Source of the DNA: Nannocystis bainbridge | GTDB lineage: Bacteria > Myxococcota_A > Polyangia > Nannocystales > Nannocystaceae | Direction of reading: 5' to 3' | Assembly: GCF_028368995.1 (NCBI RefSeq) | Contig: NZ_JAQNDL010000003.1 | Coordinates: forward strand, 2,336,001 to 2,400,000 | DNA: 64,000 bases | Shown: in pieces, positions 19,262 through 25,639 of the stretch | Numbering within the stretch: position 1 is the first letter of the stretch | How the letters are laid out: every line of letters starts with the position of its first letter | Program-made: the position numbers and the translations under genes | The notes under the pieces: model-generated | Databases searched by the model: none | Told to the model about the DNA's origin: nothing | Seen by the model: only the letters and a program-made list of their open reading frames with translations

Positions 19262-19455
19262 CCCTCTCCTCACGAGCCCGAAGCCCGCGCATGACCTCTC
19301 TCGTCGCCGCAGCTCGGCCCGGGCGCATCGCCGAACAGCCCTCGCGCATGACCTCTCCCGTCGCCGCTGCTCGCCCCGGGCCCATCGCCGAACAGCCCCC
19401 GCGCATGACCTCTCTCGCCACCGCACTTCGCCGCTCCGCACGAGGTGCCCGATGA
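19258..19455 (+). repeat. 57-bp tandem repeat forming a 65-aa bridging ORF between the molybdoenzyme subunits
   Basis: CGCGCATGACCTCTC unit with ATGs at 19291, 19348 and 19405 (period 57); ORF 19258-19455 overlaps both neighbours by ATGA. Confidence 0.75.
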
Positions 19456-20465
19456 CCGCGCTCGAGCTCCCGACCACCCTCGACGCCGCGCTCGGCCGCC
19501 CCGGTGAGCTGCGCGCCGGCGGCACCGACCTCACCGAGCGGCGCCGGCTCGACCTGTCCCGGGGGACAGTCATCGACCTGCGCGACGTCCCCGGCCTCGA
19601 CGCCATCACCTGGCGCGAAGGACAGCTGCACCTCGGCGCCCTCGTCACCCTCGCCGCCGTCGCCGCGCACCCCGACGTGCGCGCCCGCTACCCGGCCGTG
19701 GCTGCCACCGCGGCCGCCGTCGCGACCCCGCAGATCCGCGCCCGCGCGACTGTCGGCGGCAACCTGCTGCAGCACGTGCGCTGCTGGTACTACCGCCGCC
19801 CCGGCGCCGACTGCCTCAAGAGCGGCGGCAGCGGCTGCCCGGCCCGCAGCGGCGACCACCTGTTCCACGCCTGCTTCGACCTCGGCCCGTGCGTCGCGCC
19901 GCACCCGTCGTCGCTGGCGACCGCGCTGCTGGCCTACGAGGTCCGCGTCGAGGTCGCCGGCGACCGCGAGCACACCCTCGCCAGCCTCTACGGCGACGGC
20001 TCCGATGCGCGCCGGCACCACATGCTGCCGCCCGGCGCGCTGCTCACCGGCGTGCTGCTCGGCCCGCCCCTCGCCGGCGAGCAGGCGGCCTACGTGCGCG
20101 CGACCAGCCGGGCCCGCGCGGAGTGGCCGCTGGTCGAGGTGGTGGTGCGCCTGGCGGTGGCCGCCGGCCGCATCGACACCGCCCGCGTCACCGTCGGCGG
20201 GGTGGCCAACCTCCCGCTCCGCCTCGCCGCGGTCGAGGCCCTGCTGGTCGGCAAACCCGCGCACGAGGCGACCCTGGCCGCCGCCGCCGCGGTCGCAGCC
20301 GAGGGCGCGAAGCCGCTGACCCACACGGCCTACAAGCTCGACCTCCTGCGCGGCGCGGTCCTCGACGCGCTCGAGCGCGCGCTCGCCCACACGCCGACCG
20401 CCGCGACGCCCGCCAAGACCCCCGAGCCATCGCCCGATAAACCCGCGACCGCCGAGCCGACCTGA
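19452..20465 (+). CDS. FAD-binding subunit of molybdoenzyme (PaoB/YagS-like, with Fe-S cysteines)
   Basis: AGGTDL, ATPQIRARATVGGNLLQ, RCWYYR...CLKSGGSGC...CVAPHPS, VGGVA and AYK motifs. Confidence 0.92.
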   Translation: MTALELPTTLDAALGRPGELRAGGTDLTERRRLDLSRGTVIDLRDVPGLDAITWREGQLHLGALVTLAAVAAHPDVRARYPAVAATAAAVATPQIRARATVGGNLLQHVRCWYYRRPGADCLKSGGSGCPARSGDHLFHACFDLGPCVAPHPSSLATALLAYEVRVEVAGDREHTLASLYGDGSDARRHHMLPPGALLTGVLLGPPLAGEQAAYVRATSRARAEWPLVEVVVRLAVAAGRIDTARVTVGGVANLPLRLAAVEALLVGKPAHEATLAAAAAVAAEGAKPLTHTAYKLDLLRGAVLDALERALAHTPTAATPAKTPEPSPDKPATAEPT

Positions 20466-20480
20466 CCTCGAGGACAGCCC

Positions 20481-20699
20481 ATGCAACTGTGCCGCCACCT
20501 GCGCTGGAAAGGCCACTCGCACGACGCGACCGAGCTGGCCGAATTCATGCTGACGTTCGCCCGCAACCAGGTCCCCTACTCGTGCCTCCACACGTGCCAA
20601 CCATGGGGCCCCGACGACGAGCTCGCCGCCCCGGAGGCCTGCAACGACAGCCGCCCGTGCTACAAGCCGTCCCCGCTGGTCACCCTCCGCCTGAGCTGA
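20481..20699 (+). CDS. Small Cys-rich protein in the molybdoenzyme operon
   Basis: 72 aa: CRHLRWK...YSCLHTCQPWGPDD...PEAC...RPCY; GAGGA RBS. Confidence 0.75.
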   Translation: MQLCRHLRWKGHSHDATELAEFMLTFARNQVPYSCLHTCQPWGPDDELAAPEACNDSRPCYKPSPLVTLRLS

Positions 20700-20726
20700 G
20701 ACGCCGCTCAAAAAAACAAATGTAGA

Positions 20727-20812
20727 TGCGCAGGGAGGGACTCGAACCCTCACGCCCCTCGCGGGACCTGGCCACCTCAAGGCCAGCCGTCTACCAATTC
20801 CGTCACCTGCGC
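20727..20812 (-). tRNA. tRNA-Leu(GAG), non-canonical (A10-G25 mismatch, C26-G44 pair)
   Basis: GCGCAGG/CCTGCGC acceptor, A73, loop TTGAGGT, long variable arm, GAGGG-TTCGAGT-CCCTC T arm; no encoded CCA. Confidence 0.88.
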
Positions 20813-20842
20813 GCGCTGCCGCTGCTCGTCGTGATTCCCTGA

Positions 20843-20928
20843 TGCGCAAGAAGGGACTCGAACCCTCACGCCCCACCCGGGGCCCGGCGTTCTGAGCGCC
20901 GTACGTCTGCCAATTCCGCCACTTGCGC
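20843..20928 (-). tRNA. tRNA-Leu(CAG)
   Basis: GCGCAAG/CTTGCGC acceptor, CGGCG-CTCAGAA-CGCCG anticodon arm, long variable arm, A73. Confidence 0.92.
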
Positions 20929-20952
20929 CTGTCGCTCCCCAGTTCAAAAGAA

Positions 20953-21038
20953 TGCGCAGGGAGGGACTCGAACCCTCACGCCCCATCCGGAGCCTGGCGT
21001 TCTGAGCGCCAGCCGTCTACCCATTCCGTCACCTGCGC
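20953..21038 (-). tRNA. tRNA-Leu(CAG), non-canonical D stem
   Basis: TGGCG-CTCAGAA-CGCCA anticodon arm, Leu-type body, A10-G25 mismatch. Confidence 0.88.
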
Positions 21039-21052
21039 GTCTCTCAAAAAAG

Positions 21053-21135
21053 TCCGCGGGGCAGGGATCGAACCTGCCCGCGCCGAAGCGCCGTCGGTTT
21101 ACAGCCGACTGCCCCACCATTGAGGCGTCCCGCGG
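21053..21135 (-). tRNA. tRNA with Tyr anticodon (GTA), atypical body
   Basis: CCGCGGG/CCCGCGG acceptor (C1-G72), A73, GTCGG-CTGTAAA-CCGAC, variable arm GCGC-TTCG-GCGC, GCAGG-TTCGATC-CCTGC. Confidence 0.82.
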
Positions 21136-21172
21136 AAAATTCCCCCGTCCTCTTCTCCTCATCACAAAAGCA

Positions 21173-21259
21173 TGCGCAGGGAGGGCCTCGAACCCTCACG
21201 CCCCTCGCGGAGCCCGACGTTTTGAATGTCGGTTGTCTACCGAATTCCAGCACCTGCGC
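21173..21259 (-). tRNA. tRNA-Leu(CAA), non-canonical
   Basis: Leu-type body, loop TTCAAAA, A31-C39 and C10-A25 mismatches. Confidence 0.82.
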
Positions 21260-21299
21260 GAATCACTCGTCGACCTCTTCCTTTCTTAAAAAGATACGA

Positions 21300-21382
21300 T
21301 GCACAGGGAGGGACTCGAACCCTCACGCCCGACGGGCCTGGCGCTCTCGAGGCCAGTTGTCTACCAGTTCCAGCACCTGCGC
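21300..21382 (-). tRNA. Leu-type tRNA with ambiguous anticodon (GAG with C33, or 9-nt loop) and G3-U70
   Basis: GCGCAGG/CCTGTGC acceptor, CTGGC-CTCGAGAGC-GCCAG anticodon arm, standard Leu T arm. Confidence 0.7.
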
Positions 21383-21433
21383 GTATTCGTGTCACTCGTA
21401 CCCCTCAGGCCGTCCGTGGCCTGATATGGGGGA

Positions 21434-21508
21434 TCGGGGCAGCGGGATTCGAACCCACGACCTTCTGTGCCCAAGACAGACGCTCTGACCAGGCTGAGCT
21501 ACGCCCCG
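21434..21508 (-). tRNA. tRNA-Pro(TGG)
   Basis: CGGGGCG/TGCCCCG acceptor with C1-G72 and A73; TCTGT-CTTGGGC-ACAGA anticodon arm; GGTTCGAATCC. Confidence 0.92.
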
Positions 21509-21697
21509 AAAGCGTAAATGACGAGACCCCACGCGAGAGACACTGTCACAGTGCCATCGAACATTCGCCCGTCGGGCCGATCCGACGATCGAACCTTCAC
21601 GTGCGCAAGCCGACGCGGACTCGCGGAGGTGCAACGATTCGGATGTCTCCCCGCGCTCGTTGCAGCGCTCGCCTGCACTCCGACCGGAGCGCCCCGT

Positions 21698-21775
21698 TTA
21701 CCGGGGTAGATACGGCAGCAGGCGTAGATACGGCCGCGGGTCCAACAGCTCGGGGAGCAGCAAGAGCCCCGCCAT
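21698..21775 (-). CDS. Putative Leu/Pro/Tyr-rich leader peptide of the tRNA array (MAGLLLLPELLDPRPYLRLLPYLPR)
   Basis: ATG at 21775, TAA at 21698-21700; 10 Leu, 5 Pro, 2 Tyr; in-frame GTG at 21835 would give 45 aa; same strand and upstream of the array. Confidence 0.6.
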   Translation of the reverse strand: MAGLLLLPELLDPRPYLRLLPYLPR

Positions 21776-21852
21776 AAGCGGCTGGCCCTGGAGCTTCGTC
21801 CCGATGATGTGCTGATGGTTCGCCACGACGTTCACCCTGACTCGGTCCGGGG

Positions 21853-21881
21853 TATGTACAGCAGGCCGATTCGCCGGTCAA
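21853..21881 (-). promoter_or_regulatory. Possible sigma70-like promoter for the leader/tRNA transcript
   Basis: TTGACC-17 bp-TACATA on the minus strand; the -10 match is poor. Confidence 0.3.
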
Positions 21882-22082
21882 GTCCCTCGCACGATTTTTC
21901 CGCGGGCCGCCGGCAGTGCCCACATTCGCCGCGCGCCCGCGTCACGCTCCGCGAATCCGCGCACCACACTCCTGCCATTGCCGCGCCGCGCCGCTCGTCC
22001 CCCGCCCGGCGGACCCCCGCGGCCGGCGCCGCTCGCCGCCGCCCTCGCGTCCGCGCGCCGCTCGTGTATCCTGGCGCCCGCC

Positions 22083-22730
22083 GTGTCCCCGACCTCGCCG
22101 ACCTCCTCGGTCCTGCGCCCACGCCTGCGCGGCGTCGCCGACATCTACGTCGCCTCCGTCGCGGTCCCGGCAGTGGTCGCCCTGGTCCTCTATGCCCGCG
22201 ACGGCGCCGCCACCCTCTCGGCCCTGGTCTACGGCACGTCCCTGGTGGTCCTGCTGGTCGGCAGCGCGGTCTACCACCTGCCCGGCTGGCCGCTGCGCAC
22301 CGCCCTGTGGCTGCGCAAGCTCGACCACGCCAACATCTACCTGCTGATCGCCGGCACCGCGACCCCGCTGGCCCTGGCCCTCGACAGCTCCGCCAGCGTG
22401 TGGCTGCTGTCGGCCATGTGGCTCGCCGCCGGCCTGGGGGTGGTCAAGACCTTCGCCTGGCCCCGAGCCCCGCGCAAGCTCAGCGCCGCGCTCTACGTGC
22501 TCATGGGCTGCTTCACGCTGCCCACCGCGCCAGCCCTCCGCAGCGCCGCCGACGAGGTGTTCCTGCTGTTCGCCACGGGCGGGTTGCTCTATTTCTGCGG
22601 CGCGGTGATCTACGCCCTCCGCTGGCCCAACCCGGTCCCGCTGGTGTTCGGCTACCACGAGCTCTTTCACGTGTTCGTCTTCAGCGCCGCCCTGGTCCAT
22701 TACCTGGCGATCTGGGTCCTCGTGACCTGA
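22083..22730 (+). CDS. Hemolysin III / PAQR family membrane protein
   Basis: RPRLRG, SAVYH, LRKLDHANIYLLIAGT.TP, LYVLMG, GGLLY..GA.IYA and FGYHELFHVFV motifs; start uncertain. Confidence 0.9.
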   Translation: MSPTSPTSSVLRPRLRGVADIYVASVAVPAVVALVLYARDGAATLSALVYGTSLVVLLVGSAVYHLPGWPLRTALWLRKLDHANIYLLIAGTATPLALALDSSASVWLLSAMWLAAGLGVVKTFAWPRAPRKLSAALYVLMGCFTLPTAPALRSAADEVFLLFATGGLLYFCGAVIYALRWPNPVPLVFGYHELFHVFVFSAALVHYLAIWVLVT

Positions 22731-22876: not shown

Positions 22877-25639
22877 TTGACTACGGTGGAGGATCGGGCC
22901 CTCTTAGCAAAGCGCCTCGTGTCGAAGTCGCATCCAGCCCCGCATGCGCCCGATGGCAGCGGTCCCGGCCCCGTCGGCGGCCAGGGCAGGGCGGCCGCGT
23001 CGACCCGCAAGACCCCCGTCTCTCCGACCTCGCCGGACCCGGTCACGCTCGAGCCCGGCCGCGAGATCGGTCGCTTCACCGTGCTCTCGTACCTCGGCGC
23101 CGGCGCCATGGGCATCGTCTACGCCGCCTACGACCCCGAGCTCGACCGCAAGGTCGCGCTCAAGGCCCTGCGCCCGCAGGGCCGCCCCGAGAGCCACGGC
23201 CGCGTGCGCCTCCACGACGAGGCCCAGGCGATGGCCAAGGTCTCGCACCCCAACGTCGCCGTCGTCCACGAGGTCGGCCTCCACGACGACGGCATCTTCA
23301 TCGCCATGGAGTTCGTCCACGGCGAGACGCTCCAGGCCTGGCTCGAGAAGCAGCCGCGCCCGTGGCCCGAGGTGCTCGACGCGTTCATCCAGGCCGGCCG
23401 CGGCCTCGCTGCGGCCCACGCCGCCGGCCTGGTCCACCGCGACTTCAAGCCCAACAACGCCATGATCGGCGACGACGGCCGGGTCCGCGTCCTCGACTTC
23501 GGCCTGTCGTGCACCCCTGAAAAGGCCCGCCGCGAGATCGTCGGTACGCCGGCCTACATGCCCCCGGAGCAGTTCCTCGGCCTCCCGGTCGGCCCCGCCT
23601 CCGACCAGTTCAGCTTCTGCGCCTCGCTGTACCAGGGCCTGTTCGGCCAGCTGCCGTTCCCCGGCGACAGCGCCGAGGAGCTGCGCGTCACCATCACCGG
23701 CGGCCAGGTCCGCGCGCCGCCACGGCACGTCCGCGTGCCCTCGTGGCTCAGCTCCGCGATCCTGCGCGGGCTCCGACAGAACCCCGAGGACAGGTTCGCC
23801 AGCATGGAGGAGCTGCTGCGCAACCTCGACCACCACCGCAGCCGCGGCCGTCGCACGCTGCTCGGGGCGGTCGCCGCGGCGGCGCTCCTCGGTCTCGGCG
23901 GCGGCTACCTCGGCGCGCGCCCGCTGGCGGTCGAAACCTGCAGCGACGGCGCCGCGCAGATCGATCCGGTGTGGCACCGCGACGCGCAGGCGGCGATCGA
24001 GCGCACCTTCGCCAAGTTGCCGCCCGCGTTCGCCACCGAGTTCTGGCCGCAGGTCCGCGCCAAGCTGGGCGCCTGGACCCTCGACTGGAAGACCCATTAC
24101 CGGGCCGCCTGCGAGGCCCGCGAGCGCCACGAGTTCTCCGAGGAGCTGGCGCTGCGCAGCTCGGCCTGCTTCGAGCGGGCCCGCGCCGCGCTGGCCTCGG
24201 CCGTCGTCGTCCTGCGCAAGGCCGACGCCGGCGTGGCCTTGCACGCGCTCGAGGTCGCGACCTCTTTGCCCGACCCCGCCGAGTGTCGCAGCAGCGCCAG
24301 CCTCGTCGCGCACACCCGGGCCTCGCGCGACATCGGCACCACCCTGCGTCGCCGCAAGGTCATGGCCGAGCTCGAGGACGTCAAGATCCACGCCCGGGCC
24401 GGACGGATCCGGACCTCCCGCCAGCTCGCCGAGTGGACCCTGCGCGAGGCCCACGCGCTCGGCGACCGGGCCACCCTGGCCGAGGCGCTGCTCCTGCGCG
24501 GCCGCCTCGACATCGAGATCGACCCGACCCGCGCCGAACCATTCCTCACTCGCGCCTATCTCGTGGCCCTCGGCGCCGGCGAGGACAACCGCGTGGTCGA
24601 GGCGCTCGCGCTGCGCCTCTACGCCCGCAGCCACGCCCCGCACGGCCTGCCGCGCGCCTTCGAGGACCTCGAGGTCGTCACCGCCTTGTTGCCCCGGATC
24701 GGCAACCCGCCGAGCCTGCAGGCGCTCGCCTTCAACAACGCCGGCTCGCTGTACCTCACCGCTGGCGACGGCGCCAAGGGCGAGCCGTACCTGCGCGAGT
24801 CCTTGCGCCTGCGCCGGGCCGCCAGCGAGGACGACGTCGAGGTCGCCAAGACGCTCGGCAACCTGGCCCTGCTGGCGCGAGATCCCGCCCGCACCCGCGA
24901 GCTCGTCGGCGAGTCGCTGACGATCCTCGAGAACAACCTCGGCCTCGCCCACCCCGAGGCCATGGCGGTGCGGATCCTCGCCGGCGCCCTCGCCGAAGAT
25001 CCCCAGGAGGCCGTGCAGCTGCTCGAGCGCGGCTGCGACGCCCTCGACTTGTACCGCCCCGACGATTCGCGCGCCCGCGCCGAATGTCTACAGCACCTGG
25101 CCGCGCACGCGCGCGACGCCGGCGAGCCGGCGATCGCCGACGACGCGATCGTGCGCGCGCGCGCGCTGATCGAGCGAATGGCGGATACGGAGCCCGATTC
25201 ACCGTTCCGCTTCGACAACGCCCTGATCCGCGGCTACGCCGGCCTGGTCGACGGCGCCCACGCTGACGCCCTGATCTACCTCGGGCGCACGCTCGACGAG
25301 CTGCGCGGCGGCGAATGGTGGCAGCGGCGAAAGGTCGCCGAGATCGAGCTGTGCATCGGCCTGCACCTGCTCGCCGACGGCGACATCCCGGGGGCCCGGC
25401 GCGCGCTCGCGGCCAGCGTCGCCATCTTCGAGCAGGTCGCGGCCAAGGCCCACGACAACGTCCTGCCGCGGACCCTCGCCGGCGCCCGGCTGGCCTACGC
25501 CGACGCCCTGCGCGCCAGCTTCGACCCGGAGGCCGCCGCGCACGAGCTCGCTGTCGCCGAATCATGGTACCGCGAATCCGCGGGCGATTTCGCATGGCGC
25601 CTGCCGACAATCGCCCAACGCCGTCAGCGACTGGAGTAA
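22877..25639 (+). CDS. Membrane Ser/Thr protein kinase with extracytoplasmic TPR-like region
   Basis: LGAGAMGIVY, VALK, HRDFKPNN, DFG, GTPAYMPPEQ; TM segment; Cys-containing helical domain and TPR-like repeats; start uncertain. Confidence 0.92.
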   Translation: MTTVEDRALLAKRLVSKSHPAPHAPDGSGPGPVGGQGRAAASTRKTPVSPTSPDPVTLEPGREIGRFTVLSYLGAGAMGIVYAAYDPELDRKVALKALRPQGRPESHGRVRLHDEAQAMAKVSHPNVAVVHEVGLHDDGIFIAMEFVHGETLQAWLEKQPRPWPEVLDAFIQAGRGLAAAHAAGLVHRDFKPNNAMIGDDGRVRVLDFGLSCTPEKARREIVGTPAYMPPEQFLGLPVGPASDQFSFCASLYQGLFGQLPFPGDSAEELRVTITGGQVRAPPRHVRVPSWLSSAILRGLRQNPEDRFASMEELLRNLDHHRSRGRRTLLGAVAAAALLGLGGGYLGARPLAVETCSDGAAQIDPVWHRDAQAAIERTFAKLPPAFATEFWPQVRAKLGAWTLDWKTHYRAACEARERHEFSEELALRSSACFERARAALASAVVVLRKADAGVALHALEVATSLPDPAECRSSASLVAHTRASRDIGTTLRRRKVMAELEDVKIHARAGRIRTSRQLAEWTLREAHALGDRATLAEALLLRGRLDIEIDPTRAEPFLTRAYLVALGAGEDNRVVEALALRLYARSHAPHGLPRAFEDLEVVTALLPRIGNPPSLQALAFNNAGSLYLTAGDGAKGEPYLRESLRLRRAASEDDVEVAKTLGNLALLARDPARTRELVGESLTILENNLGLAHPEAMAVRILAGALAEDPQEAVQLLERGCDALDLYRPDDSRARAECLQHLAAHARDAGEPAIADDAIVRARALIERMADTEPDSPFRFDNALIRGYAGLVDGAHADALIYLGRTLDELRGGEWWQRRKVAEIELCIGLHLLADGDIPGARRALAASVAIFEQVAAKAHDNVLPRTLAGARLAYADALRASFDPEAAAHELAVAESWYRESAGDFAWRLPTIAQRRQRLE

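Follow-up and report, generated by a model that had tools for sequence, protein, structure and literature searches.

Leader-peptide attenuators, in which control is mediated by the ribosome, are known from the amino-acid operons trp, leu, his, thr, ilv and phe and from the synthetase operon pheST, and rare codons are known to make the leaders of biosynthetic operons sensitive to shortage. For bacterial tRNA genes the usual picture is one of control at the promoter, by growth rate and the stringent response, and not species by species. Here we describe, in a 64,000-nt window of the Nannocystis bainbridge genome (the whole stretch analysed, G000:C2:2336001-2400000; the genome has 11.05 Mb, 71-72% GC and 5 contigs), a small open reading frame (ORF) that precedes an array of seven tRNA genes for Pro, Leu and Tyr on the same strand and is rich in just these amino acids. 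Its frame is conserved among relatives, its composition is nearly unique in the genome and, over a larger set of arrays, the content of the leaders statistically tracks that of the arrays behind them. We propose, with a probability of roughly 0.55, that the ORF is a translation-sensing regulatory leader, through which slow decoding would increase expression of the array. This appears to be a new use of leader-peptide sensing, and one that comes as a family of modules.

With the attenuators of amino-acid operons (for the pheL leader peptide, see PMC3082878) the locus shares a short 5' ORF on the same strand, enrichment for the related amino acids, rare codons, and hairpins at or after the stop codon. 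In the window this ORF lies between a promoter-like element and the array, with matching codon enrichment and a conserved frame. The two kinds of system also show important differences: (i) the downstream genes are here tRNAs and not enzymes, so that the sensor would read the class of product that it controls; (ii) a terminator hairpin with a U-tract was not found here; (iii) the leaders described here are modular, with conserved ends and an exchangeable cassette that covers up to at least 11 amino acids (in the leader of a 23-tRNA array). T-box riboswitches are likewise cis-acting leaders that sense the charging of specific tRNAs to control translation-related genes; their action is through direct binding of tRNA and does not depend on translation. 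Neither a T-box nor any other riboswitch model of Rfam matched 20300-22300 at E <= 1, the hits there being those of the tRNA clan plus two chance matches, CcsR1 (E 0.15) and UCA1 (E 0.57).

On the side of the tRNA genes, the trn operon of Anabaena sp. PCC 7120 is an inducible long tRNA array whose repressor acts on direct repeats at the promoter (PMC8421152, PMC10272220). Both systems consist of supernumerary arrayed tRNA genes apart from the housekeeping set, with a proposed response to impaired translation; there, however, direct repeats at the -10 region and start site are used together with the repressor TrcR, whereas here each array has a codon-matched ORF. The words leader, attenuat-, uORF and stalling do not occur in the available text of PMC10272220, nor leader and attenuat- in that of PMC8421152. 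Prokaryotic tRNA array units, defined by at least 20 genes at a density of at least 2 per kb (PMC4758250), are similar in being dense same-strand clusters with paralogous, duplicating members (PMC4758250, PMC5966550). With 7 genes in 783 bp the window array has the density and not the number of such a unit; the 23-gene array at C2:2556665-2559233 of the same genome has both. The available text of PMC4758250 holds no occurrence of Sorangium, Myxococc-, Deltaproteobacteria, leader or ORF. For supernumerary tRNA arrays a response to translational stress or an anti-defence role has been proposed, and their role is still debated. In the limited literature searched, no report ties a leader peptide or attenuation to tRNA arrays.

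The leader ORF and its conservation

The leader comprises the following features (positions are those of the window):

21698-21835, minus strand: leader ORF of 45 codons and a stop codon, MNVVANHQHIIGTKLQGQPLMAGLLLLPELLDPRPYLRLLPYLPR (with its GTG start given as Met), from the ORF list and the conserved frame
21773-21775, minus strand: ATG, an internal Met21 and not a conserved start (ACG in L002-L005, ATG in L001 and L006 only)
21701-21766, minus strand: Leu/Pro/Tyr-rich tail, codons 24-45, the presumed sensing segment, from composition score and genome rarity
21701-21736, minus strand: tandem 18-nt direct repeat coding (R/L)-P-Y-L-x-x twice, copies at 21701-21718 and 21719-21736, 83% identical (repeat search family D1)

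The ORF begins about 18 nt past a -10-like hexamer and its stop codon lies 188 nt from tRNA-Pro, the first gene of the array. A preliminary description, made from the letters alone, had read it from the ATG at 21775 as a 25-residue peptide, MAGLLLLPELLDPRPYLRLLPYLPR, with 10 Leu, 5 Pro and 2 Tyr and a duplicated GCCGTATCTAC. Sequence, translation, counts and duplication are all as it said; the start is not, the ATG being ACG in four of the five orthologs found. The GTG at 21835, named at that stage only as an alternative, does not vary and falls in the alignment on the ATG with which the homologous leaders in L007/L008 begin (loci, genomes and genera carry our own L, G and g labels), and we therefore place the ORF at 21835-21698, with 45 codons.

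Because open frames are cheap at 71% GC, the rarity of the composition was measured. The best 20-codon window of the tail holds 16 residues of 20 that are Leu, Pro or Tyr (L/P/Y; score 8.9, as defined below), and L/P/Y ranks first among the 23 amino-acid sets scored on the region upstream of the window array. Over the six frames of the whole 11-Mb genome there are 17,875,121 stop-free 20-codon windows, 340 of them with at least 16 L/P/Y; with at least 2 Tyr in addition, 5 windows at only two loci are found genome-wide, namely this leader and an unrelated Pro-rich stretch without Leu. The L/P/Y composition of the leader is beyond chance. The tail carries TTG, CTA and TAT twice each, the CCG TAT CTA of the 18-nt repeat standing at 21733-21725 and 21715-21707. 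These codons had been taken for rare, and they are: in 558 long ORFs of contig C2 with high GC at third codon positions, TTG makes up 4.9%, CTT 1.5% and CTA 0.49% of the Leu codons, and TAT 12.5% of the Tyr codons. It is also true that, as had been pointed out, the first four Leu codons of the shorter peptide are those read by the array, but this is a weak argument, since CTG and CTC together make up 93% of Leu codons here, the TTG among these four is CTG in 3 of the 6 orthologs, and for the two CTA codons, which are conserved, the array has no matching anticodon.

A DNA search of 41 related genomes gave the orthologous locus in five congeners with near-complete assemblies (L002-L006), whose arrays open Pro-Leu-Leu-Tyr and then run, through duplication of a Leu/Tyr unit, to 9-13 tRNAs. 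In all six congeneric loci the frame is open over 45-47 codons with start and stop at identical alignment columns, the stop being TAA in two and TGA in four; conservation of an upstream ORF had been suggested as a check, and the frame is kept in all five orthologous arrays found. The sole gap run inside the ORF alignment, of 6 nt, gives L006 one more Pro-Tyr unit, its third; gap runs number 13, one of them a multiple of 3, in the 188 nt that follow the ORF. Extended to four leader ORFs of the same genome, the indel runs inside the frames are of 6 nt in one, 3 nt in the second, 3 and 3 nt plus one 2-nt run at a stop in the third, and none in the last, and downstream of these ORFs gap runs are mostly of 1-2 nt. 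A 705-nt contig of a relative from a soil library (run X1), which spans 21304-21509 and 21593-21981 and shows about 91% identity over the leader and the two leading tRNAs, lacks 3 nt at 21715 and has gained CGG at 21730, in frame as in the genomic orthologs. The spread of variable sites over the codon positions (given below) speaks against ordinary protein constraint: what the leader keeps is its frame, and not a fold.

Leaders before other tRNA arrays

Leaders that are conserved in congeners, where they differ by in-frame changes only, also precede further arrays of the window's genome. About 200 kb from the window, the 23-tRNA array at C2:2556665-2559233 has 268 nt upstream the leader ORF MAPIAVTTKDTHQPVARDAMGKRIQTWRRGRGC, which despite the 71% GC of the genome is built from AAA, AAG, AGA, CAA, CAG, ATT, ATC, GAT and TGG, that is, from the array's own amino acids. 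Its ortholog in G003 has diverged (MAPITTTPKHTEEPAKDTQGQRMGSMWRIPRRRR, read from the aligned DNA) with frame, stop and array-type composition kept. Upstream of a Glu-Glu-Asn array (C1:1430433-1430676) lies the Asn/Glu-rich leader MSRLNPNTSNPARFRVLGNEERELERILRGG, and upstream of an array of three Ser tRNAs (C3:526095-526398) the leader MLPRRTDRTRSPRSVSGFGRSSSSSR, the last Ser codons of which are TCC AGT TCG AGT TCA. Beyond this genome, 34 further tRNA-cluster regions (G011, G024, G019, G076) were chosen by the clustering of tRNA hits alone. Arrays of other genomes and their leaders are:

L007, plus strand (G002): array Pro, Arg, Pro, Pro, Leu, Leu; leader MNTASNIHGSTLQLQPRAGLLLPVRPLRLRLLPLPTR, no Tyr
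L007, convergent array on the same contig: array Thr, Val, Ile, Met, His, Phe; leader MFRFTDHTTTTTTTTVVRGIIVAFMGVDMRPR, 22 of 32 residues from exactly those six
L010 (G011, another genus): array Pro/Arg/Ser/Leu/Tyr; homolog of the window leader with an L/P/Y/R tail
L011 (G024): array Ser x4 and Tyr; leader MVAHESLAHVFEFCHATAYDSSSSYAYVLGSRSSSRC
L043: array Met/Phe; leader MIRFTNMMYMYTPGARFMCVMAPC
L048: array Ser/Ala/Trp/Cys/Val/Ile; leader MERFTNISTPASAQAAALWSLVRLAGEIVAC
L049: array Asp/His; leader MNRSAQTHRHHHVVIVHSMHDICPC
L050: array Thr/Phe/Asn/Lys; leader MKRTTTKTHTTTNPVAMGSFTASNSRKFGSC
L064: array Arg/Leu; leader rich in R and L
L066: array Thr/Val/Ile/Met; leader MDRITTVTVTTTTTPIAAVRGVIVRS
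L069: array Pro x3 and Tyr; family-1-like leader with the P/Y tail SPYPRVRVAPRPYPSPAEG, no Leu in the tail
L104 (from the profile search): array Arg, Pro, Arg, Pro x4, His x3; tail VVLRRLPMRSYRRPHPRR, R/P/H
L110 (from the profile search): array Arg, Pro, Pro, then Leu/Tyr; tail TLPSLPLPLRLYPYRRRLPRLAL, L/P/Y/R

The comparison among Myxococcota relatives that had been proposed as a further check bears the idea out: judged by these sequences, the amino-acid content of the leaders follows that of the arrays across independent arrays and genera. The score used is the enrichment of the array's amino-acid set in the best stop-free 20-codon window within 450 nt upstream on the sense strand (binomial, pooled background). 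Arrays with at least 3 tRNAs were scored and the true leader-array pairings set against shuffled ones; the rows dropped were 2-tRNA clusters, L040:34 (at a contig start, with no upstream sequence) and the close orthologs L002-L006 and L008, because one event would be counted many times. The first set of 20 arrays (G000 plus L007, L010, L011 and L038-L057) contains four housekeeping clusters as well as the loci from which the idea had come, and gave an observed sum of 77.0 vs 41.9 +/- 4.9 for the shuffled pairings (maximum 66.1). A replication set of 17 arrays, from L038-L057 and L064-L077 only, gave 54.6 vs 34.8 +/- 4.5 (maximum 57.6). The observed sum was reached by 0 of 200,000 shuffles in the first set and by 14 of 200,000 in the replication set, permutation p-values that are not exact because the genomes are related. 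The amino-acid sets of the tested arrays are largely different from one another, and among the 13 non-housekeeping arrays of the replication set a clear leader can be seen by eye in 6 (L043, L048, L050, L064, L066, L069). The Thr-Tyr-Gly-Thr clusters of G000, G011, G024, G019 and G076, which we infer to be housekeeping from their shared order and a nearby tRNA-Trp beyond, score at background (1.6-2.3) and are without leader ORFs of this kind. At the codon level, 180 of the 212 array-amino-acid codons in 15 leaders are readable by the array anticodons under simple wobble rules, a purely descriptive count; the claim that leader codons mirror the tRNAs thus stands for amino acids and holds in part for codons.

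The leaders fall into families. Family 1 comprises the window type in 6 genomes together with members in G002, G009, G011, G057, G054, G058, G062 and G076 (genera g1, g2, g4 and g14), which share an N-terminal N-x-H-x-I-x-G-S/T-x-L-Q-like segment; L007 and L008, with Pro/Arg/Leu arrays, have homologous leaders with L/P/R tails that lack Tyr. In family 2 (L007-minus, L043, L048, L049 and L050) a variable cassette stands between two conserved ends: the start cgccATG-x-CGN-TTC-ACG-AAC (M-x-R-F-T-N/D) is found in L007-minus, L043 and L048 only, and the leaders end YGT-TGA-GCG, followed by a conserved Y-rich/CGG motif. Run over 401 genomes of the class, a family-1 profile gave E <= 1e-16 in 6 genomes of the genera g1, g2 and g4, all of the window's own family, and its matches outside that family all had E >= 6e-4. 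The two out-of-family matches inspected (L107, L108) were rejected as longer open frames with no tRNA nearby. The two-motif pattern of family 2 has 6 matches over the genome contigs, of which 2 lie beside tRNAs (G002:C63 and G024:C27); the other 4, without tRNA, were set aside and are in line with a rough prior estimate of about 4 chance matches. A metagenome scan with the leader alignment matched 16 stretches, none confirmed by tblastn, and G104 (another family, 46 tRNAs) and G013 (genus g4, 49 tRNAs) have no tRNA arrays. Leader-array modules appear, on this comparison, to occur in at least five genera (g1, g2, g4, g14 and g15) of one myxobacterial family. There is about an even chance that each supernumerary array in this family of large-genome myxobacteria has its own programmable leader, with conserved ends and a codon cassette that would be rewritten as the array gains and loses tRNA species.

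The N-terminal half of family 1 invites another explanation, namely that the ORF encodes a small protein acting in trans, which would merely be co-transcribed with the tRNAs that its composition requires. The N-x-H-x-I-x-G-S/T-x-L-Q segment is conserved across genera with synonymous differences (CAT/CAC, ACG/ACA), and leader peptides with roles in trans are on record (10.1101/864512). The tails, however, differ wholly between arrays and always match the array, which fits a sensing cassette and not a folded product; the peptides have 24-47 residues of low complexity, and the leader peptide matches no Pfam family. We regard this as the least probable of the readings considered here.

On G002:C63, a contig of 5.5 kb, two arrays (L007/L058), each with a leader of its own, converge tail to tail. 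The minus strand of this contig holds two more tRNAs (Asp and Lys), some 1.2 kb upstream of the Pro/Arg/Leu array.

Promoter-like element, RNA structures and proposed control

Around the leader ORF, the following elements are conserved or predicted:

21895-21899, minus strand: A-tract AAAAA upstream of the -35 element, from the alignment
21853-21881, minus strand: promoter-like element, TTGACC (21881-21876), 17-nt spacer, TACATA (21858-21853), from conservation
21692-21706, minus strand: predicted stop hairpin CCCCG-GTAAA-CGGGG, with the stop codon in the loop
21675-21692, minus strand: second hairpin GCGCTCC-GGTC-GGAGTGC with a GGTC loop (RNAalifold columns 163-181, one compensatory change)
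21631-21663, minus strand: third hairpin GCAACGA...TCGTTGC, then the invariant GCACCTCCGCG (RNAalifold columns 193-225)
21542-21550, minus strand: conserved motif TGTGACAGT, about 35-45 nt before tRNA-Pro, from the alignment

The promoter-like element is conserved in all six orthologs, with TACAAA instead of TACATA in two, and hexamers of the form TTGAC(A/G/C)-N17-TA-rich also precede the leaders of other arrays. The block AAAAAATCGTGCGA.GGAC is invariant or nearly so at the six congeneric loci; the alignment is near-invariant from AAAAAATCGTGCGA.GGACTTGACC through the TACATA/TACAAA hexamer 17 nt on, and then over the whole ORF. Upstream, AAAAAATCGTG also precedes the -35 hexamer of the unrelated array in L007, and the A-tract presumably plays a role like that of an UP element. 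Closer to the array, TGTGACAG is invariant in 6 of 6 orthologs, with like motifs at the same relative place in L007, L008, L010, L030 and L104. Another promoter-like copy, with 70% identity to the promoter, stands at 21589-21563; it was rejected, the stretch being poorly conserved.

The conservation of this DNA bears on a reading in which no leader is translated at all: the region would be a non-coding element, either an operator in the DNA close to the promoter or a 5' leader RNA with a structure of its own, the open frame would be incidental and GCCGTATCTAC would reflect a protein-binding repeat as at the cyanobacterial trn operon. The 18-nt Pro-Tyr-Leu repeat does have one more copy, 83% identical, which at 21864-21847 overlaps the -10-like hexamer, and the Anabaena tRNA operon is controlled by direct repeats that overlap its -10 region and start site (PMC8421152). 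The nucleotide sequence of the leader is, moreover, highly conserved with no excess of third-position changes, and open frames are common at 71% GC. Against this, (i) the amino-acid content in one frame follows the downstream tRNAs across unrelated leaders, (ii) the indels in the ORFs keep the frame and (iii) the stop is kept through TAA/TGA changes, all of which a non-coding element leaves unexplained; (iv) the promoter copy falls to about 12 of 18 matches in L002 and L006 (manual count from the alignment). One 18-nt copy stands at the promoter, where there is no tandem pair, and two stand in the ORF about 130 nt downstream. The promoter copy may be a relic of duplication or a DNA site, and a non-coding element as the whole explanation is very unlikely.

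In the reading that we favour, the 45-codon ORF would be translated, and co-transcribed with the array from the promoter-like element at 21881-21853. Leu, Pro and Tyr account for nearly all of its last 22 codons, among them the rare CTA, TTG and TAT, and the speed of the ribosome across these codons would provide a readout of the supply of charged Leu, Pro and Tyr tRNA. The position of the ribosome would then decide which of the conserved hairpins at and after the stop codon form, and this choice would set how much of the transcript continues into, or survives as, the tRNA genes. We infer where transcription starts, that the leader is translated, that the RNA acts as a switch and in which direction control would run, namely one in which slow decoding would turn the array up and exert a negative feedback on tRNA supply for each array, the window leader being one of a set of such leader-array modules in its bacterial family. 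This direction is favoured because the leaders are enriched in rare codons and negative feedback is a stable logic.

What the hairpins contribute can be followed across leaders. In 7 of 8 family-1 leaders the stop is enclosed by a stem of at least 5 consecutive pairs, against a background per position of 0.5-13%, and the stems differ in sequence (CCCCG/CGGGG, CCCTG/CAGGG, CGTCGC/GCGACG, CGCCGC/GCGGCG, TCGTCG/CGACGA and CTGGCGCTG/CAGCGTCAG), the CCCTG/CAGGG of L006 being a compensatory pair. The stop-in-loop hairpin holds for the family-1 leaders and the Ser leader; the family-2 leaders have no such hairpin, with stems of 3-4 pairs only. In the Glu-Glu-Asn leader the stop lies in the loop of a 9-bp hairpin, CTGCGCGGG/CCCGCGCAG, 36 nt from the first tRNA, which is followed by a U-rich stretch in 4 orthologs. 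Most family-1 members have the second hairpin with its GGTC loop and covarying stems (in other genera ACGCCCC/GGGGCGT in L007, L008 and L033, ACGCTCTA/TAGAGCGT in L010). In the third hairpin, two sequences are changed on both sides at one pair in the RNAalifold model, and for the segment 21657-21647 of its loop there is another partner, codons 27-30 of the ORF at 21757-21747 (I4, an inverted repeat of 11 nt, 91%). This is a candidate, if unproven, for the kind of alternative pairing that an attenuator needs. RNAalifold on the six close orthologs gave 107 pairs, 9 of them with a compensatory change, and does not fix the structure because divergence among these orthologs is too small.

The same translated leader could also work with the opposite sign: efficient translation to the stop would melt the hairpins at the end of the ORF and so allow transcription to go on, and the array would be made only when the matching charged tRNAs or amino acids are plentiful, a supply-driven control like the coupling of ribosome and RNA polymerase at attenuators of the pyrBI type. 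The last sense codons form the 5' arm of the stop-in-loop hairpin in 7 of 8 family-1 leaders and, because the end of the ORF overlaps this first hairpin, a terminating ribosome would melt it; a terminating ribosome would likewise block the 9-bp stop hairpin of the Glu-Glu-Asn leader, the one with the U-rich stretch behind it, and the mismatches at the codon level fit a sensor of amino-acid sufficiency equally well. On the other hand, an enrichment in rare codons is known from biosynthetic leaders to give the strongest response to shortage, it is hard to see how a positive feedback on tRNA supply would be stabilising, and there is no U-tract after the window's stop hairpin or the next one. We consider this direction of control unlikely.

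Several results weigh against control of the array by slow decoding of the leader, the reading preferred here. (i) There is no U-tract terminator between the ORF and tRNA-Pro, the hairpins at 21706-21631 being without a U-tract, and a consensus scan of 20300-22300 gave 0 terminator-like sites; the mutually exclusive antiterminator and terminator hairpins with a U-tract that characterise attenuators were thus not found in the window. The preliminary description had proposed a translation-sensing attenuator, of which the leader in cis that mirrors the tRNAs stands, as a candidate translation sensor; attenuation and its direction are conjectural. Termination dependent on Rho, or processing, is as likely as intrinsic termination, since the U-tract terminator is lacking, though the array's own end has a T-run. 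(ii) The same scan gave 0 promoter-like sites, so that the promoter is proposed from its conservation. (iii) The fold of the 338-nt leader has z = -1.2 and 11 of 100 shuffles fold as well, so that thermodynamics adds nothing. (iv) Variable sites number 9/17/9 of 46 at codon positions 1/2/3, with no third-position excess. (v) Among the 13 non-housekeeping arrays of the replication set, 2 have only a candidate leader (L044, L068) and in 5 none is evident by eye; no leader is evident within 450-500 nt of these five, L039 (17 tRNAs), L040 (Lys x7), L041, L070 and L072, or of the array of three Cys tRNAs in G000. (vi) The two conserved CTA codons of the window leader have no cognate anticodon in the array, and codons unreadable by the arrays recur (CTA twice in the window and in L007 and L064, ACC, GTC, GCC). 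With codon-level matching incomplete, feedback by way of the array's own tRNAs can be only part of the explanation; because CTA, ACC, GTC and GCC are out of reach of the array anticodons, the leader may read the charged pool for the whole amino acid and not only the array's own species.

If each supernumerary array does carry such a leader, tRNA genes under ribosome-mediated leader control would be seen here for the first time, with translation both gauging the tRNA supply and correcting it in a closed loop. Every array would by itself adjust its transcription to what the cell can decode of that array's amino acids, which would also be a natural defence against the loss of specific tRNAs to starvation, anticodon nucleases or synthetase inhibitors. 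A codon-matched leader for each array would give amino-acid-specific feedback and extend leader-peptide control from enzymes to the decoding machinery, and would provide the supernumerary tRNA arrays with a testable function. Being short (about 25-45 codons, with conserved ends), the modules could be rewired as synthetic sensors of decoding capacity.

The array and its surroundings

The array and the chromosomal genes on either side of it comprise:

21431-21509, minus strand: tRNA-Pro (TGG), ARAGORN; Rfam tRNA 65 bits
21300-21382, minus strand: tRNA-Leu (GAG), second gene, ARAGORN; Rfam 30.5 bits
21173-21259, minus strand: tRNA-Leu (CAA), ARAGORN
21052-21135, minus strand: tRNA-Tyr (GTA), ARAGORN
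20953-21038, minus strand: tRNA-Leu (CAG), ARAGORN; Rfam 47.5 bits
20843-20928, minus strand: tRNA-Leu (CAG), ARAGORN; Rfam 50.8 bits
20727-20812, minus strand: tRNA-Leu (GAG), last gene, ARAGORN; Rfam 43.8 bits
20710-20720, minus strand: T-run TTTGTTTTTTT, 6 nt past the last tRNA, read from the sequence, with no call in the terminator scan
21978-22730, plus strand: HlyIII-family gene, divergent, upstream of the array
22877-25639, plus strand: Ser/Thr kinase gene, beyond the HlyIII-family gene
20481-20699, plus strand: unassigned 72-codon ORF, convergent, downstream of the array
19452-20465, plus strand: gene for a molybdopterin-dehydrogenase FAD subunit, downstream of the array

By ARAGORN the window holds seven tRNA genes, which share the minus strand at 21509-20727 and follow one another in the transcription order Pro-TGG, Leu-GAG, Leu-CAA, Tyr-GTA, Leu-CAG, Leu-CAG, Leu-GAG. 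This is the list given by the preliminary description, whose queried second gene is Leu-GAG at 21382-21300, and all seven match the tRNA clan in Rfam, the lowest at 30.5 bits vs a cut-off of 29. The T-run at 20720-20710 likely marks the end of the transcription unit. In the spacers between the genes (21039-21051, 21136-21172, 21260-21299 and others), most array tRNAs are followed within a few bases by a short T-run of 4-6 T, and these runs may serve as leaky terminators or as signals for processing.

Among the 102 tRNA genes of the genome, those of the window form the only Pro/Leu/Tyr tRNA array. Except for Leu-GAG, each array species is also present outside the array, at 59-76% identity; Leu-GAG occurs in the array only, with a lone Leu-AAG gene elsewhere in the genome, at C1:3087156. 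The view of the array as a set of backup tRNAs, put forward earlier, is therefore apt for the species with a diverged non-array paralog and not for Leu-GAG. The five array Leu genes, with three anticodons (GAG, CAA, CAG), are 83-88% identical to one another and 69-74% identical to non-array Leu genes; their mutual identity across three anticodons suggests that they arose by tandem duplication with anticodon change. The array tRNA-Tyr has C1-G72 at the top of its acceptor stem, the non-array tRNA-Tyr (C2:2134591-2134676) G1-C72. Elsewhere, several array tRNAs of L010, L110, L066 and L064 (G011, G054, G076) have, according to ARAGORN, anticodons not usual in bacteria (Leu-AAG, Ser-AGA, Thr-AGT, Arg-GCG).

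At the array of three Cys tRNAs of the window's genome (C1:3057514-3058200), a tandem repeat of the 10-nt unit GCGTGCCTGC in about 6 copies lies about 100-160 nt upstream, and farther upstream a TTGACG-N17-TATTTC element is followed by a short ORF, in which the only Cys codon stands close to the end.

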